Position numbers and translations under genes: made by a program
Shown: positions 13,665 through 20,854 of the stretch, in pieces
Numbering within the stretch: the stretch's first letter is position 1
Layout: each line of letters starts with the position of its first letter
DNA from: Candidatus Helarchaeota ASGARD archaeon Hel_GB_B
GTDB lineage: Archaea > Asgardarchaeota > Lokiarchaeia > Helarchaeales > HEL-GB-B
Reading direction: 5' to 3'
DNA: 28,023 nt
NCBI GenBank assembly: GCA_005191425.1
Contig: SUPR01000044.1
Span: 1 to 28,023 of the forward strand
The notes under the pieces: model-generated
The model's input: only the letters and a program-made list of their open reading frames with translations
Database searches by the model: none
Told to the model about the DNA's origin: nothing

Positions 13665-16232
13665 TTACACAGATAATTTATCTAATTTAAATGAAATAAA
13701 GCGGGAAATATAAATTTTTTTCTCCGTTTCTTGGATTTTTAGATAGTTTAGTAAATATTCTACCTCATTTTCTGTCAAATCATATATTTTAAAGAAAATT
13801 ATATCCAAAATTGCTGTATACTTTTTTAAATCCATATTAGATGGCGAATTAACTGAATTATTCTTAATTTCAATTATTTTACTTACAATTTTATTAATTA
13901 TATTTACATATTCTTTTGAAAAATAAATTGGAAATTTTAACAAAACTTCTTTATCAATTTGTAATAAATTACCATGTGTTTTTGAATTTTTGAAATAAAA
14001 AAATGCCAATTTTGAATTAAAAAGACCTAAAAGATATAATGAATAGATTTTACTTCTTAATAAAATAAAGTTCACCCCTTGATCCATAAAATAAGAAATG
14101 GGTACTAATGAAAATTTCGGATAAGGGGTTTTTCTGACAGAAATTATTTTATTTTTTGACTCAAAAATCTCCATTTTTCTAGGCCTGTGGAGGCCATATG
14201 GTTTTTTATCAGAAGTAATAATTGCTTGGAATTGGTCAAGGTGCTTGATTAAATTCGGATAATTTAATTGTATTTCATTTTTTATTTTTAAAATAGCATT
14301 TTTGTTTTTAATTAAATTAATATCATTTTTATCATAATCGAAATAATGTTTTGATACATAAATTATCCACTTGTCATTTTTCTTTTTATAATAAAATGGT
14401 CCAATATCATGAGGTTCGTAGAATGGTTTTATAAATTTTAATTCTTTTTCAGTTAAATTTAATTTTTTTAATTCTTTATTGGAAATTACTTGAATTCCAT
14501 CACCGATATTAAATTTATAATTTAAATTATTATTTAAAGTTTTTAGATGCGATTTTTTAACATTTTTCTGTGGTATAACTAATCCTTGTATTATCTGGTT
14601 AGTAGGTATATTAAAATTCTTTTTTTCTTCCATTTTTTGTAGGATATTTAGTGTAATTTTATCTATAAATTGTATGTTATCTAAATTTGAGATTTTAAGT
14701 AGTTTAGTTTCACATTCAATTCCTTTGATATTTTTGCCGCTCATTAATACTTTTGATATATCATTAATTGAAACATTGGGGTTTAGTATGGAAATAATTT
14801 TAATGAAATAATTAGAGTTATTAAATAGATTTTGATATTTTTGAAGTATTAAAATAGAGTTATGCTGACCAGATGCATCACTAAATATTTTGTATTCGTT
14901 GAATTCTACTACCTTATGTATAATTGAGCTATGAAGTATTTTTTTTCTTAGTTTATTTCCAAATGTTCTATTTTTCCAGTAATCCATTACAATAAAGCCT
15001 AAATACCCTTTATTTTTAAGAATATCAAGACTTCGTTCTATAAAAAAATAAAAAATGTCCATCTTTTGTTCATAATAGTCCTTGACTACTGGTGAAAGTT
15101 TATAAAGTCTAAATTTTTCTTTATTACCTCTAATTTCTGTAAAATATGGGGGATTTCCTATTATAATATCGAAACCCTTATTTTTTTTATAATTAAGGTC
15201 GTTGCTTACTTGAAAATAATTATAAAAAAATTCAATACATGAAATTACAGGTTTATTTTTAATTAAAATATTGTAATTTAGATTGTTACTTAAAATATAA
15301 TTTTGAGATTTAGTTAATACTTTATTTTTTATCTTTTTTTTCATTCGTTGTAATTTTAATATTAAATTTTTATCTATATTTTCATTGTAATTATAAATTA
15401 TGGTTTGATATAATGAAAACAATTCTTTAAGTTCGTCAGAAAGATTTTCTATTATAAATTTAGAAATCTTAAAATCAATTAGAAAATCAGCATTTATTAA
15501 ATTCAAATCCAAGATTGGTAGTAATATGTTTATAAAATTGGTAATATCAGATAAATTCAATTTATTTTTAACAAACTTCAAAATTTTATATGATAAATTC
15601 AATTTTGTAAGAATTATTGCATTTGGATCTAAATCTATTCCATGGATATGTCTCATTATAATAAGATAAATCAAATTTTGGTCATTATTTAAGCCTAATT
15701 GCCTTTTATACTCGAAAATTTTTTGATTTAATGTTTTTAACGTAATGGCGTCCATCAAATTATTGTTATCATTTATTTTTTCAAATAATTTTTCAATTTT
15801 CTTATATTTATTCCATATCATATTAAAAGCTGATATTAAAAATGTCCCTGAACCACATGCGGGGTCTAAAATTTTAATATTTACAATTTTTTCAATTGTC
15901 TTATCACAATTTTTAAAATCATTATGATTAAATTCTTTTATAAGTATAGATATTAATTTATCAAATAGAATTCCAATGGTATTTTTAATAATATATTCAA
16001 TAATATATTTAGGAGTATAATAAATTCCCGAGTTTTTTCTTATATTTTCTGAATTTAAATAAAATTCATATAATTTTCCCAATATATCCTCATTTTTGCC
16101 AAAAATATTCTGGAATCTTTTATAAATTTCATCGACCTTTTTTAAATCCTTATCTAAGTCGATTGTAGGTAAAGAAATAAAAAAACGGTTAATAGCTTCA
16201 ATATCTTCCACTGATTTTATAGACAACTTCAT
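13665..16232 (-). CDS. N6-adenine DNA methyltransferase (Eco57I/TaqI-like, gamma class) with C-terminal target-recognition region
   Basis: GIYYTP, ILDPACGSGTFL (motif I), GIDLDPNA, FDIIIGNPPY (motif IV) and TaqI-C-like YLLGLFNSKL. No nuclease domain recognised. Confidence 0.9.
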   Translation of the reverse strand: MKLSIKSVEDIEAINRFFISLPTIDLDKDLKKVDEIYKRFQNIFGKNEDILGKLYEFYLNSENIRKNSGIYYTPKYIIEYIIKNTIGILFDKLISILIKEFNHNDFKNCDKTIEKIVNIKILDPACGSGTFLISAFNMIWNKYKKIEKLFEKINDNNNLMDAITLKTLNQKIFEYKRQLGLNNDQNLIYLIIMRHIHGIDLDPNAIILTKLNLSYKILKFVKNKLNLSDITNFINILLPILDLNLINADFLIDFKISKFIIENLSDELKELFSLYQTIIYNYNENIDKNLILKLQRMKKKIKNKVLTKSQNYILSNNLNYNILIKNKPVISCIEFFYNYFQVSNDLNYKKNKGFDIIIGNPPYFTEIRGNKEKFRLYKLSPVVKDYYEQKMDIFYFFIERSLDILKNKGYLGFIVMDYWKNRTFGNKLRKKILHSSIIHKVVEFNEYKIFSDASGQHNSILILQKYQNLFNNSNYFIKIISILNPNVSINDISKVLMSGKNIKGIECETKLLKISNLDNIQFIDKITLNILQKMEEKKNFNIPTNQIIQGLVIPQKNVKKSHLKTLNNNLNYKFNIGDGIQVISNKELKKLNLTEKELKFIKPFYEPHDIGPFYYKKKNDKWIIYVSKHYFDYDKNDINLIKNKNAILKIKNEIQLNYPNLIKHLDQFQAIITSDKKPYGLHRPRKMEIFESKNKIISVRKTPYPKFSLVPISYFMDQGVNFILLRSKIYSLYLLGLFNSKLAFFYFKNSKTHGNLLQIDKEVLLKFPIYFSKEYVNIINKIVSKIIEIKNNSVNSPSNMDLKKYTAILDIIFFKIYDLTENEVEYLLNYLKIQETEKKIYISRFISFKLDKLSV

Positions 16233-16390
16233 TTTGTTATTAAGTACTAATACTTTTTAATAATTCACTTATATTATTTACTAATTTTGTTAAACTAAAA
16301 AATTATGGAAAGAGATTTTTAGCAATTGCACGTAATTATATTTTAATAATTTTTCGATTTAGAAAATATTAGACTTGAGCTTGGATAATT

Positions 16391-16432
16391 CAGTCAGTAC
16401 ATTACAACGATTAATTTGAAAAGTACTGGCTG
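16391..16432 (+). promoter_or_regulatory. GC-enriched inverted repeat / leader hairpin upstream of mvhG
   Basis: CAGTCAGTAC (16391-16400) pairs with GTACTGGCTG (16423-16432): 10 bp with one T:G wobble, 22-nt inner segment, ending 34 nt before the ATG. Confidence 0.45.
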
Positions 16433-16466
16433 CATTTAAAAAGACAAAAATAAAAGTGATGTAAAC

Positions 16467-17828
16467 ATGCCACCAAAAGTATGTTTTATGCAGTTAAGTA
16501 GTTGCTGGGGCTGCTATCAGTCTCTATTTGATGACTACGGAACTGATCTAGTAAATATATTAACGAATATAGAAATAGTTTATTTTCCTGCGGTAGTAGA
16601 TATAAAACACAAAGATTTTGAAGCATTACCGGATGGTTCTGTTGATGTTGGTTTTATTGAAGGAAATATAAGGACTACAGAAGATCTTCATAATGCGAAG
16701 TTAGTCAGGCAAAAGTGTAAGGTAGTTGTTGCAATGGGAAGTTGTGCTTGTTTTGGAGGAGTTCCCAGCCTTGCAAATTTATACACTAAAGAGGAATTAA
16801 TTGAGCGAAAATATACAACTGCAGATACAATTGTAGAAACAAAAGGATACCCAACCGAAAATGTTCCAGATATTTTAGAGAGCATCCCAGCAGTTCATGA
16901 AGTTATTGATGTAGATATATGGATACCTGGATGCCCTCCAATAACAGATCATCTCGTTGCAGCTTTTAAGTACATTCTTGCTTTACCATCTACGACCCCA
17001 TCAGATAAAAATATTTGTGATATTTGTGAATTGAGAGGCGATAAATGTCTATTAAATAGAGGAATATTATGTTTTGGTGCTTTATCAAGTGCAACATGCG
17101 AATTAAAATGCCCAAATAAGGGCGAAGTATGTTATGGTTGTACAGGCGCTACTAAAAATATTGCAAAAGCTGAAGCTAAGAAATTAATAGATTTAGTTTC
17201 TACTAAAGAACTGACTGAAACGGAAGTAGGGGATATTCTTAAATTTATCACATTATATGCAAAGATCCCAAATCTTGGTTATATGTATGTTAAAGGTGAT
17301 CCACTCCAAGCTTTAGGGCATAAAAGAGCAGATTATACAATTAAAACTGTTGAAGGTACCGGCATTAAGGCATTTGATTTGAGTGGATTCCCAGAGGAAA
17401 TTGGAATTTTGTTATATGCTGTAAGTAAAAGCAAACATTTCCATTATACAGAGCAAACAGTCTGTGCAACATGTCCTAGAAATAAAGAAGATAAATCGTT
17501 GAAGGGGCTAAAAAGAGATTATGAAGGTGGGGTAAAAGACCAAGAAAGATGCCTTTTAGAACAAGGATATTTATGTATGGGAATTGTGACTAAAGGCGGA
17601 TGCGGGGCTTTATGCATTAAAGCAAATTGTCCATGTCTTGGTTGTTATGGGCCCTCTCCTAATATCGTAGATGCGGGGGGTAAATTTACCACATCAATTG
17701 CATCAATAAGTACTGCTCTAGGAGTGCCTGATATAATTGAAAAGATTCCTGATCCTGCAGGTCAATTTTATAGATTTATGACCTCAGTATCACCATTTAA
17801 AAAGAAACAAAATGATTCTGGGATGTGA
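16467..17828 (+). CDS. mvhG: Group 3c-type [NiFe]-hydrogenase small subunit (MvhG/VhuG-like) with duplicated Fe-S module
   Basis: SCWGC, GSCA.FGG.P.LANL and IPGCPP, followed by two 8-Cys modules and KIPDPAGQFYRF. Confidence 0.88.
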   Translation: MPPKVCFMQLSSCWGCYQSLFDDYGTDLVNILTNIEIVYFPAVVDIKHKDFEALPDGSVDVGFIEGNIRTTEDLHNAKLVRQKCKVVVAMGSCACFGGVPSLANLYTKEELIERKYTTADTIVETKGYPTENVPDILESIPAVHEVIDVDIWIPGCPPITDHLVAAFKYILALPSTTPSDKNICDICELRGDKCLLNRGILCFGALSSATCELKCPNKGEVCYGCTGATKNIAKAEAKKLIDLVSTKELTETEVGDILKFITLYAKIPNLGYMYVKGDPLQALGHKRADYTIKTVEGTGIKAFDLSGFPEEIGILLYAVSKSKHFHYTEQTVCATCPRNKEDKSLKGLKRDYEGGVKDQERCLLEQGYLCMGIVTKGGCGALCIKANCPCLGCYGPSPNIVDAGGKFTTSIASISTALGVPDIIEKIPDPAGQFYRFMTSVSPFKKKQNDSGM

Positions 17829-17832
17829 TTAA

Positions 17833-18330
17833 ATGTCTATGGATTTAGAATTTAGGAGAATAGTTCTTGGTAAATATATGGACTCAACTTTACATTATTG
17901 TTTACAATGTAGTAGATGTAATGATGTATGCCCTGTTAATGAAGTATCTGATGGCGCATATAACCCTCGTTCAGTAATTCTTAATGCATTTTTAGGGCTG
18001 AAAGAAAACCTTATAGGTAAACCAAATAATATCGCAGTATGGGGCTGTCAAATTTGCGATACTTGTAATTTAACTTGCCCACAAGATATAGAATTGACAG
18101 ATATATTTTATATAGTTAAAAATCTATCAGTTCAAGCAGGAGAAGCTCCCGAATATTATGTAATTCAAGCTAAGGCAATATTAGAAAGCGGAAAAGCTAT
18201 TCCACTACAGACAGCAATTGAAAGACGAAGAAGTCAAATGGGACTTCCTGAAGTACCAACTGGATTCGAAGATGACGTAAAAATAATACTAAAAGAAACT
18301 GAATTGGAGGAAAAATTATCAAAATATTAG
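17833..18330 (+). CDS. hdrC: Heterodisulfide reductase subunit C (2x[4Fe-4S])
   Basis: CLQCSRCNDVCP and WGCQICDTCNLTCPQDI; lies directly upstream of hdrB. Confidence 0.9.
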   Translation: MSMDLEFRRIVLGKYMDSTLHYCLQCSRCNDVCPVNEVSDGAYNPRSVILNAFLGLKENLIGKPNNIAVWGCQICDTCNLTCPQDIELTDIFYIVKNLSVQAGEAPEYYVIQAKAILESGKAIPLQTAIERRRSQMGLPEVPTGFEDDVKIILKETELEEKLSKY

Positions 18331-18340
18331 GGTGATAAAA

Positions 18341-19219
18341 ATGTCAGAATATAAATTATTTGCTGGGTGTGTAATTCCAAATAGATTACCGTTTCTAGAA
18401 CTTGCATCAAGAAAAGTTTTCGAAAAATTGGGCGTCCAGACTTCTGATGCACCATTTAGCTGTTGTCCAGACCCAGTAGGATTCCAAAGTACTGATAAAG
18501 AAAGTTGGCTTGCCTTAGGAGCCCGTAATTTATGTATTGCCGAAGAAGAGGGCAAAGATATAGTTTCACTCTGTAATGGTTGCACTCAAACTTTAAAAGC
18601 AGTTCAATATGATATCGCAAGAGCTTCTGAACTTGAAAAACAACGAATTTCAGATATTTTAGCAAAAGTAAATAAAGAATATAAAGGCTCAATTACAGTT
18701 AAACACTTTGTACAAGTTCTAATTGAAGATGTTGGTATTGATAAAATTAAAAGTATGATAAAAAAACCGATAGAACTTAAAATTGCATGCCATACAGGAT
18801 GCCATTATGCCAGACCAGCTGAAGTAATGAATTGGGACGATCCGGAACATCCAATTTATCTTAGACAATTGGTCGAAGCTTGCGGAGCTACCCCTGTTGA
18901 TTATGAAGAGGAAGTCTTATGCTGTGGGGCTGGAGCAGGTAATGCAAAAACAGAATATGGACTTGGCGTTCTGAAACGCAAATTGGATAGCGTAATTTCT
19001 GCTGGTGCTGATTGCATTTGTGTAGTCTGTCCAGCTTGTTTTACTCAATTCGATACTCAACAACGAGCTTTATCAAAAATGGTAGAAAAGGAATATAAAA
19101 TTCCAGTACTCTATCTAACAGAATTAATGGCGCTAGGAATGGGCTTTACTCCAAAAGATTTAAATTTAAAATATCATGGAGTAAAAACTAAAAATATCAT
19201 GGAAAAAATTGGACTTTAA
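18341..19219 (+). CDS. hdrB: Heterodisulfide reductase subunit B (two CCG domains)
   Basis: F.GC.IP, SCCP, LCNGC, HTGCHY.RP, CCGAG, CPAC..QFD and PVLY.TEL..L. ATG 18341 follows SD GGGTGA; the ORF track starts at GTG 18332. Confidence 0.93.
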   Translation: MSEYKLFAGCVIPNRLPFLELASRKVFEKLGVQTSDAPFSCCPDPVGFQSTDKESWLALGARNLCIAEEEGKDIVSLCNGCTQTLKAVQYDIARASELEKQRISDILAKVNKEYKGSITVKHFVQVLIEDVGIDKIKSMIKKPIELKIACHTGCHYARPAEVMNWDDPEHPIYLRQLVEACGATPVDYEEEVLCCGAGAGNAKTEYGLGVLKRKLDSVISAGADCICVVCPACFTQFDTQQRALSKMVEKEYKIPVLYLTELMALGMGFTPKDLNLKYHGVKTKNIMEKIGL

Positions 19220-19239
19220 TCATTTAAAAATAACATAGA

Positions 19240-19268
19240 TTTTCTATTCTTTTTTAAAACCTTTTTTT
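19240..19268 (+). terminator. T-rich tract, probable terminator of mvhG-hdrC-hdrB
   Basis: Successive T runs 20-50 nt after the hdrB stop. Confidence 0.35.
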
Positions 19269-19353
19269 GTTATTTGAATTATATTTATCCTGAAAATAAA
19301 TTTGATTTGATTTCTTCAAAATGTTTTTCTAATCGTATTTTTTATTATATACT

Positions 19354-20223
19354 ATGACATTTCCAGGAATGGAAAAATGGAGAGAAAAACTCCCAAATTA
19401 TCAAGGGAATAAAATATATCTTTTTCTTTTAAATAGCATATTATTTTTAAGTATTGGATTAATTTTTTAGGTCTTATTTGATATTATACCAAGAATATAC
19501 TTTTATATTAATTTTTTAGTTATTTTAGAGCCCATTTTTCCTATTATTGTCCCATTGATCACGGTTATAATTGGACTAAATATATTAAGAAGTATTTGGA
19601 AAAATAAAGAAAAGTATATAAAAGAAAATAAAAGAACCACTTATCAGCGAGCATTTAAAAAGTTTACTATTGGTCTGCCCTTTTTATTTTCTGTTATAGC
19701 CCATATTTTTATTCCAATTCGAAGCTTTTTTTTAATAACACCCATAAATAATTTTACGATAATATTATCCACTTCAATTTTTGCTTTTTCACCTTTTACA
19801 TCATTAATAGGTTTTTATATTCAAGTAATTTTATCATTATTTTATCTAATTTTAGGACTTTTAATTGTAAGAAAATCACTTCAAGTATTTGGAATAGATT
19901 ATATGACATTAGTTTATTTATTTTATCCAAACGAATCAAAAATACAAAATCACAGAATATATTCTATTTTACATCATCCCACTTATACAGGTGCCATTTG
20001 CATAACTCTTGGAGGTCTATTCATTAATTTTTCAATTTATTCTATTATACAATTTTTTATGATTTTTTTAGGATTAAATTGTCATATTCGATTTGTAGAA
20101 GAGCCCGAATTAATTGAAAGATTTGGAAAAAGCTATATTGAATATAGAAAAAATGTGCCCGCTTTTTTAATTAGGTTTAGGGATATTCCCGAATTATTCA
20201 AGTTCATTATTGGAAAAAGATAA
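19354..20223 (+). pseudogene. ICMT/PEMT-family membrane methyltransferase interrupted by one in-frame TAG (19468-19470); pseudogene or read-through gene
   Basis: ATG 19354 is in frame with the tracked ORF 19555-20223: MTFPGMEKWREKLPNYQGNKIYLFLLNSILFLSIGLIF*VLFDIIPRIYFYINFLVILEPIFPIIVPLITV.... The C-terminus has YSILHHPTY and EEPELIERFGKSY.EY...VP.F. Confidence 0.7.
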
Positions 20224-20407: not shown

Positions 20408-20854
20408 TTAACTTTTTTCTTTTTCCCACTTTTCTCGTTTTTCTTTTTTCATAGGGTTTGGGCCCAATTCGCGTATTTCCTCAACATATTCTTTTACTAG
20501 TTCCGTTAATTCAACACTATCAGAAGCAGAAATCCATTGAAGCTTAACACGATTTGGATTAATTCCAAATTGAGAAATTAGCTTTTGAACGATAGGAATT
20601 TTGCGTTCTGTTTTATAATTGCCTTCCACATAATGACAATCACCAGGAAAGCATCCACAGATAAGAATCCCATCTGCACCATTAGCAAGAGCCTTTAAAA
20701 CAAATGTGGCATCAACTCTACCAGAACACATTACTCTAATTATTCTTAGATTTGCGGGACGTTGCATTCTTGATGTACCTGCTGCATCGGCTCCAGCATA
20801 GGAACACCAATTACAAAAAATTCCAAGGATGTAAGGATCAAACTCTTCAGGCAT
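20408..20854 (-). CDS. mvhD: Hydrogenase iron-sulfur subunit MvhD ([2Fe-2S])
   Basis: FCNWCSYAGAD.AG..R, RIIRVMCSGRVD and GC.PGDCHY.EGN. Confidence 0.95.
   Translation of the reverse strand: MPEEFDPYILGIFCNWCSYAGADAAGTSRMQRPANLRIIRVMCSGRVDATFVLKALANGADGILICGCFPGDCHYVEGNYKTERKIPIVQKLISQFGINPNRVKLQWISASDSVELTELVKEYVEEIRELGPNPMKKEKREKWEKEKS

Follow-up and report, generated by a model that had tools for sequence, protein, structure and literature searches.

The DNA analysed here, referred to as the window, comprises positions 1 to 28,023 of contig SUPR01000044.1 (C123) of Candidatus Helarchaeota archaeon Hel_GB_B (assembly GCA_005191425.1; 3.54 Mb, 28% GC, 93.7% complete), which is an Asgard archaeon belonging to the class Lokiarchaeia, without methanogenesis and not a methanogen. 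Its forward strand carries an operon of three genes, mvhG, hdrC and hdrB, the first of which encodes an extended hydrogenase small subunit. At about an even chance, this locus is the electron-transfer half of a Lokiarchaeia-type [NiFeSe] hydrogenase/disulfide reductase module that is split over two loci, with H2 wired directly to HdrCB and without MvhD or HdrA. The long MvhG is very probably the small subunit of the VhuA and VhuU proteins encoded on contig C128, a pairing that we infer from the sequences, and would be joined with HdrC and HdrB encoded next to it. According to a complex prediction, a module inserted in MvhG probably docks on the N-terminal helix of HdrC and on its first [4Fe-4S] site. 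The three genes of the operon are as follows (aa, amino acids).

16467..17828, + strand: long MvhG/VhuG-type [NiFe(Se)]-hydrogenase small subunit, 453 aa (Pfam, NCBIfam, PDB phmmer, AlphaFold2 fold)
17833..18330, + strand: HdrC-like subunit, 165 aa (Pfam, NCBIfam, phmmer to HdrC chains)
18341(ATG)/18332(GTG)..19219, + strand: HdrB-like subunit, 292/295 aa (Pfam, NCBIfam)

The genes are tightly packed, as an earlier note on this DNA had described, and the open reading frame (ORF) calls agree with its spacing of 4 nucleotides and then 10 nucleotides when the ATG at 18341 is taken as the hdrB start. This ATG is also the start that agrees with the N-termini of HdrB orthologues. MvhG scored 91 bits with Pfam Oxidored_q6 (PF01058), and its best NCBIfam family was VhuG (NF045875) with 247.7 bits, under the cut-off of 450. 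HdrC contains a Pfam 4Fe-4S dicluster domain and reached 82.8 bits with NCBIfam TIGR03290, under the cut-off of 160. Similarly, HdrB with its two CCG domains (PF02754, two stretches, 95.9 bits) reached 297.2 bits with TIGR03288, under the cut-off of 345. The NCBIfam equivalog cut-offs were missed by all three operon proteins. The earlier note had seen neither a hydrogenase large subunit nor HdrA in the window, and the phmmer scan of all genome ORFs likewise found no HdrA and no [NiFe] large subunit on this contig; an mvhD gene at 20408-20854 had been overlooked.

The length of MvhG is explained by an insertion. In the PDB phmmer search, MvhG residues 4-188 and 309-438 matched the solved MvhG chain 5odc_E, and the segment between them is extra. 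Because residues 180-260 show homology to the Fe-S domain at the C-terminus of SHI delta and of MvhG, the extra segment is read as a tandem duplicate followed by helices. The protein is accordingly divided into three parts.

16467..16994, + strand: N-terminal flavodoxin-like domain, about residues 1-176 (Oxidored_q6 at residues 13-168), with the proximal-cluster ligands C13, C16, C93 and C156
17016..17396, + strand: inserted duplicate Fe-S module and helical linker, about residues 184-310, between the two 5odc_E-matching stretches, with C184, C187, C194, C202, C211, C215, C222 and C225
17463..17645, + strand: canonical MvhG-type 8-Cys module with C333, C336, C362, C370, C379, C383, C390 and C393, aligning to 5odc_E residues 153-288

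The AlphaFold2 model of MvhG, built from 44 homologues, had a mean predicted local distance difference test (pLDDT) value of 78.7 and a predicted template modelling (pTM) score of 0.77. The best fold match of this model in Foldseek was again 5odc_E (E 1.9e-22, target-normalised template modelling score 0.71). Hence the Oxidored_q6 domain with its four proximal cysteines is present and the fold is that of solved MvhG. A typical MvhG/VhuG would have a single C-terminal 8-Cys module, a length of about 290-310 aa and an NCBIfam VhuG score over the cut-off; the present protein has two 8-Cys modules and 453 aa and falls under that cut-off. Among the 44 homologues, the proximal-cluster cysteines are 98-100% conserved, the first half of the extra module (C184, C187, C194, C202) and all eight cysteines of the canonical module (C333 to C393) are 100% conserved, and the second half of the extra module (C211, C215, C222, C225) is conserved at 75-86%. 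In sum, 16 of the 20 cysteines are 98-100% conserved and the remaining four 75-86%. Since all 20 are kept in the Hel_GB_B protein, five [4Fe-4S] sites are predicted for it. The canonical 8-Cys module presumably binds the medial and distal clusters. In each module we take the first four cysteines to be like distal-cluster ligands and the last four like medial-cluster ligands, following the order in group 1 small subunits.

The two partner proteins also retain their ligands. The N-terminal helix of HdrC is conserved, its two CxxCxxCxxxCP motifs are C23/26/29/33 and C72/75/78/82, and the protein matched the solved HdrC chains 8rvv_C and 5odc_C by phmmer with E about 1e-17. In HdrB both CCG cysteine motifs are intact, ten cysteines being invariant or nearly so among 22 orthologues, and the protein is predicted to hold the non-cubane [4Fe-4S] disulfide-reducing site. 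The HdrC and HdrB alignments were assembled from co-operonic orthologues; a homologue search for HdrC gave just 8 matches.

The rest of the genome supplies a candidate catalytic partner. A paralogue census, as the earlier note had proposed, gave two Oxidored_q6 small subunits, two [NiFe] large subunits and at least 12 HdrA, and the mvhG of the window is not the sole small subunit. On contig C43 (2583-7202), a fused winged helix-turn-helix-HdrA-MvhD gene (844 aa) is followed by an adjacent pair of a 248-aa small and a 448-aa large subunit. The DPCISCATH motif of this large subunit is intact, and the contig ends just beyond its gene. Thus the same genome has a short MvhG behind HdrA-MvhD (C43) and a long MvhG ahead of HdrCB (C123). 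Once the C43 pair is set aside, one unpaired long MvhG (C123) and one unpaired split VhuA/VhuU (C128) are left over.

C128:7901-9211, - strand: VhuA large subunit, 436 aa, without an adjoining small subunit; N-terminal RICGIC present, C-terminal DPxxxCxxH Ni-binding motif absent
C128:7737-7883, - strand: VhuU, an unannotated 48-codon mini-gene with an in-frame TGA, D-N-U(TGA)-L-S-C-S-A-H, starting 18 nucleotides after the VhuA stop

Together, the C128 VhuA and VhuU have the make-up of a split-large-subunit, Vhu-type [NiFeSe] hydrogenase. Rfam called no selenocysteine insertion sequence (SECIS) and no other RNA family downstream of vhuU; ATGA...GA-like motifs seen there by eye are a possible Loki-type SECIS. 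CCG-domain proteins number about 25 in the genome. An assembly artefact as the cause of the missing large subunit was considered and rejected: both loci are contig-internal with unrelated neighbours, and the arrangement of mvhG-hdrC-hdrB with mvhD is common to two independent relatives.

Long MvhG proteins (435-492 aa; full-length matches of 36-49% identity) were found in 72 of the 76 sampled genomes of the class besides Hel_GB_B, i.e. in 65/69 genomes of family f3 and 7/7 of family f4; no match came from one additional genome of the order to which Hel_GB_B belongs. No full-length match was obtained in the sampled genomes of other Asgard classes, where the matches cover only residues 1-188 and lie in ORFs of about 305 aa (best E 7e-55). 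The flanks of about 40 distinct long-mvhG genes were examined and 37 loci were readable. VhuA and/or HdrC/HdrB lay directly downstream of long mvhG in 29 of them. The contexts are listed below; in the shorthand used from here on, G is mvhG, A is vhuA, U is vhuU, C is hdrC and B is hdrB.

G-VhuA-HdrC-HdrB: 6 of 37 loci
G-HdrC-HdrB-VhuA: 2 of 37 loci, including the closed genome G213
G-VhuA..., ended by the fetched stretch or the contig end: 7 of 37 loci
G-HdrC-HdrB: 7 of 37 loci (the window, L016, L021 and four others)
G-HdrB without HdrC: 7 of 37 loci
G alone: 8 of 37 loci

VhuA was present in 15 of the 37 loci, and the long mvhG of Hel_GB_B is not adjacent to a large-subunit gene. All eight fully flanked VhuA operons (8/8) also contained a selenocysteine (Sec) VhuU mini-ORF, with D-C-U-L-S-C-A-A-H and, in one, D-P-U. 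Within the loci surveyed, HdrA and MvhD never occurred in the gene string of operons containing VhuA and/or HdrCB. In G213 (closed, 4.36 Mb), the G-C-B-A-U operon is the sole NiFe hydrogenase, and all HdrA and MvhD genes are at least 800 kb distant. Orthologues of the window genes with 83-89% identity have the same arrangement in independent metagenome-assembled genomes. The view of the earlier note that the module lacks a hydrogenase did not hold, because an unpaired VhuA and Sec-VhuU are found on C128 and their orthologues share operons with long MvhG and HdrCB in relatives; what applies is its caveat that partners may be encoded elsewhere. Co-occurrence of long MvhG with hdrCB, which it had proposed to test, is seen at the loci with HdrC and HdrB downstream and not at the 8/37 loci with G alone or, as to HdrC, at the 7/37 G-HdrB loci. 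A link between loss of the second-half extra cysteines and loss of HdrC adjacency was also tried and rejected; that loss marks the G213/G282 clade and locus L014 in any context.

MvhG of normal length served as a control. At 14 loci in 13 genomes of other Asgard classes, where MvhG has 303-340 aa, the order was mvhD-mvhG-mvhA in 14/14 cases with mvhD immediately upstream, and hdrA was adjacent in 10/14, typically as hdrCBA-mvhDGA. The large subunits of these classes scored 530-580 bits against the C128 VhuA, and the catalytic subunit is therefore of the same kind. The MvhG insertion accompanies the departure of mvhG from mvhD/hdrA and its joining of hdrC/hdrB.

Further observations were made on the surveyed loci. 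The G-B loci without hdrC are L066, L068, L069, L071, L017, L038 and L050, with mvhG-hdrB gaps of about 65-100 nucleotides; in these f3 lineages the extra MvhG module may replace HdrC. Long MvhG is encoded twice in many f3 genomes (G147, G040, G207, G249, G192, G030). A paralogue of about 438 aa stands in a full G-A-U-C-B operon, and a second one of about 465 aa stands in G-C-B, in G-B or alone, without a large subunit to itself; either one VhuA serves both small subunits, or one of the two acts without a hydrogenase. A conserved cluster of mvhD, polyferredoxin and FwdD/B/C-like (molybdopterin) genes precedes long mvhG by about 6-7 kb at L017 (567-4552), L053, L062, L066, L068, L069 and L071, which hints at an MvhD tied to a formylmethanofuran-dehydrogenase-like enzyme and not to the hydrogenase.

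The contact of MvhG with HdrC was evaluated in a single three-chain complex prediction with MvhG 170-453 as the scored partner, HdrB and HdrC, each with its orthologue alignment. The median score was 0.63 (runs 0.60, 0.63 and 0.82), and the best of three controls gave 0.01. In the benchmark, 58/80 solved complexes and 2/110 mismatched pairs attained the mark for a complex, counts that apply only roughly here, where our own alignments and three chains were used. Contact agreement between the runs was at least 63% and the pLDDT of the partner at least 69. As for the confident contacts, the MvhG side comprises residues 195-226 in the extra Cys module, 251-272, 280-284, 322-335 and 377-378. The HdrC side comprises residues 3-26 (the N-terminal helix and the C23/C26 loop), 50-54 and 83-85 beside C82, all around the cluster-1 ligands, and a few HdrB residues (96-102) join the predicted interface. 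F260, Q281 and L283 of MvhG and Y22, C23, Q25, C26, G55 and P83 of HdrC are invariant interface residues. We know of no MvhG-HdrC contact in any solved Mvh-Hdr complex; the high score is therefore unlikely to stem from a complex that the predictor already knew. The model supports the binding of MvhG to HdrC and does not show it, the score being the model's own confidence. At this computational level, the idea of the earlier note that the extended MvhG may bridge to HdrC gains support, as the insertion tracks the joining of hdrC/hdrB and the complex scores 0.63 against 0.01.

In the proposed mechanism, the MvhG insertion of about 130-150 residues, i.e. the duplicated two-cluster Fe-S module with its helices, would sit on HdrC. 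Electrons would pass from the NiFeSe site through the proximal, medial and distal clusters to the extra cluster or clusters, then to the two HdrC clusters and on to the CCG site of HdrB. By this route H2 would reduce a disulfide or a persulfide and bypass the flavin bifurcation relay of MvhD-HdrA. At very low (syntrophic) H2 the reaction might run in reverse, with H2 being formed from a low-potential dithiol. We infer cluster occupancy, electron flow and independence of HdrA, and consider the chances of an electron path without MvhD-HdrA to be evenly poised. More tentatively still, Lokiarchaeia may have rebuilt the group 3c hydrogenase by letting a duplicated MvhG module replace the MvhD-HdrA relay, which would give a self-contained, non-bifurcating VhuAUG-HdrCB enzyme.

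The surroundings of the operon are as follows.

13665-16232, - strand: Eco57I/N6-methyltransferase gene, 855 aa, divergent and upstream of mvhG (Pfam)
16233..16466: AT-rich divergent intergenic region between the methyltransferase gene and mvhG, presumed promoter region (sequence)
19220..19275, + strand: T-rich tract 3' of the hdrB stop with T-runs at about 19246-19270, likely an archaeal oligo-T terminator (sequence)
20408..20854, - strand: intact stand-alone MvhD ([2Fe-2S] FlpD family), convergent with the operon (FlpD, 169 bits)

Both flanks named by the earlier note, the divergent methyltransferase gene and the T-runs after the hdrB stop, are present, and the latter are likely to be a terminator. 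The mvhD gene lies 1.2 kb downstream of the operon, a position kept in both close relatives (L016 and L021). Between hdrB and mvhD, a PEMT/ICMT-family gene (window 19354-20223) was called only from an internal TTG (19555). The closest homologues carry the submitter labels Helarchaeota, Lokiarchaeota and Promethearchaeota. No public RNA run is listed as containing the locus; the DNA runs that contain it are hydrothermal-vent and marine-sediment metagenomes.

The direct wiring of H2 to HdrCB has to be weighed against an ordinary bifurcating Vhu/Mvh-Hdr complex, in which the long MvhG, VhuAU and HdrCB would work with the neighbouring MvhD and with an HdrA paralogue supplied in trans. The MvhG insertion would then be a structural tether or a side wire (e.g. 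to a polyferredoxin or Fwd-like partner) and would not bypass HdrA. A number of observations fit such a complex and weigh against direct wiring. An intact mvhD adjoins the operon and is conserved there in the Hel_GB_B clade, including both close relatives, and the only function known for MvhD is that of connecting MvhG with HdrA. HdrA paralogues are plentiful in the genome, and some of the at least 12 stand without adjacent HdrBC. Because hdrCBA-mvhD clusters adjoin long MvhG at L014 and L070 (co-directional, with mvhG downstream of the cluster) and at L059 and L064 (divergent), the long MvhG is not strictly divorced from HdrA; L014, L070 and L059 are G-alone loci and L064 is a G-C-B locus. 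The mvhD-Fwd-like cluster that several f3 genomes have 6-7 kb ahead of long mvhG also fits a bifurcating complex, as does its energetically sensible use of H2 and a disulfide; H2-to-disulfide flow, if direct, conserves no energy. It should be further pointed out that hdrA and hdrCB of Methanothermobacter are unlinked and yet form one complex, and therefore operon content does not fix complex content. Besides, the Lokiarchaeial enzyme has been annotated in print as MvhADG-HdrABC (PMC7015854) and as group 3c (PMC11216029). Against the bifurcating complex stand the absence of HdrA and MvhD from every string with VhuA and/or HdrCB, their distance of at least 800 kb in the closed genome, and the adjacent mvhD that normal-length MvhG of other classes always retains. 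Moreover, the predicted docking at HdrC cluster 1 would short-circuit the bifurcating flavin adenine dinucleotide, so that a non-bifurcating H2:disulfide oxidoreductase would then be the coherent reading. We regard the bifurcating complex as the main alternative, serious but rather unlikely.

Other points that weigh against direct wiring concern the extra module, the gene pairing and the complex prediction. C211, C215, C222 and C225 are all lost in the MK-D1-like G213/G282 clade, and three of them are lost at L014. Several f3 genomes have a long-MvhG paralogue without its own large subunit, and the pairing rules are not uniform. When HdrB was replaced in a control, the score fell to 0.00, which means either that HdrC requires HdrB for its correct fold or that the prediction is fragile. 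The long-MvhG paralogues without a large subunit (G-C-B or G-B in G249, G192 and G030) would suit a hydrogenase-less arrangement, in which the long MvhG would be a five-cluster, polyferredoxin-like input from ferredoxin or another donor to HdrCB. So would the lack of a large subunit on the window's contig or within 8 kb in close relatives, and the failure to find a VhuA-type gene in G234 (95% complete). We nevertheless hold this arrangement to be improbable: Hel_GB_B has a single unpaired VhuA/VhuU and a single unpaired long MvhG, the proximal cysteines and the entire N-terminal large-subunit-binding domain are fully conserved, and many genomes have the orthologues co-operonic with VhuA. It is scarcely credible that the three genes are decaying remnants of an earlier G-A-U-C-B operon after loss of the large subunit. 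The operon is indeed incomplete compared with those of relatives, but its three ORFs are intact with every ligand cysteine kept, the same arrangement recurs in 83-89%-identical orthologues from independent metagenome-assembled genomes, and intact genes for VhuA and VhuU exist at another place in the genome.

The split VhuAUG-HdrCB module, which we prefer, can be compared with known systems. The MvhAGD-HdrABC and VhuAGDU-HdrABC complexes of methanogens (group 3c; PDB 5odc, 9sw2, 9sfi) are clear homologues as to the N- and C-terminal two-cluster domains of MvhG, HdrC and HdrB. As in Methanococcus Vhu, the large subunit is split into VhuA and Sec-VhuU, and both CCG motifs of HdrB are intact. Unlike these complexes, the MvhG is about 150 aa longer with its duplicated 8-Cys module and helical linker, the three proteins fall below the NCBIfam equivalog cut-offs, the operon string has HdrC/HdrB without MvhD or HdrA, a contact of MvhG with HdrC is predicted, and Hel_GB_B is no methanogen. 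Other Asgard classes have hdrCBA-mvhDGA clusters, which have been published as MvhADG-HdrABC of group 3c (e.g. PMC11291895). Their large subunit is very similar and their HdrB, HdrC and MvhD belong to the same families, whereas the long mvhG of Hel_GB_B stands apart from mvhD/hdrA and has hdrCB as its neighbours. In G213, the long MvhG encoded by the G-C-B-A-U operon is of the same family (42% identity over the full length), and the HdrC/HdrB paralogues and the G-C-B order are the same. There, however, vhuA-vhuU come after hdrB in one operon and the MvhG has lost four of its eight extra cysteines, whereas in Hel_GB_B vhuA-vhuU lie on another contig, all 20 cysteines are kept and mvhD adjoins the operon.

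HynSL-Isp1-Isp2 of purple sulfur bacteria (hynS-isp1-isp2-hynL, with an HdrD-like Isp2) has Hdr-like genes between the small- and large-subunit genes. Hyn and the Vht/HdrDE system of Methanosarcina are non-bifurcating and lead electrons from a [NiFe] hydrogenase to a CCG-type disulfide or sulfur site. Both are membrane-bound group 1 enzymes with cytochrome b and quinone or methanophenazine, whereas the Lokiarchaeial module is predicted to be soluble, a group 3c derivative, and to have separate HdrC and HdrB.

In cultured Lokiarchaeia, the group 3c [NiFe] hydrogenase is reported as the chief H2 enzyme or the only one. The Lokiarchaeial enzyme has been annotated as group 3c MvhADG-HdrABC (PMC7015854, PMC11216029, PMC11291895), VhuU has been published as an Asgard selenoprotein (PMC11291895), and the MK-D1 hydrogenase was assumed to produce H2 by confurcation (PMC7015854). 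Our literature searches found no description of the long MvhG, the G-A-U-C-B operon or the MvhG-HdrC contact, which does not prove their absence from the literature. The split-locus module, the class-wide survey with its other-class control and the interface prediction are new here. As to annotation, the window genes are very probably no orphans, and the C128 vhuA/vhuU very probably belong with them. The two-cluster insertion of MvhG can serve as a sequence marker for the rewired form, and the predicted interface is specific and testable.

Whether the Lokiarchaeial enzyme produces or consumes H2 underlies the syntrophy-based models of eukaryogenesis. If H2 does reach HdrCB without HdrA, the thermodynamics, the direction and the disulfide partner of the reaction would need rethinking, and the module would still work with its catalytic genes moved to a second locus. 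The 'electron-confurcating MvhADG-HdrABC' that syntrophy models ascribe to cultured Asgard archaea would then be mis-assigned.

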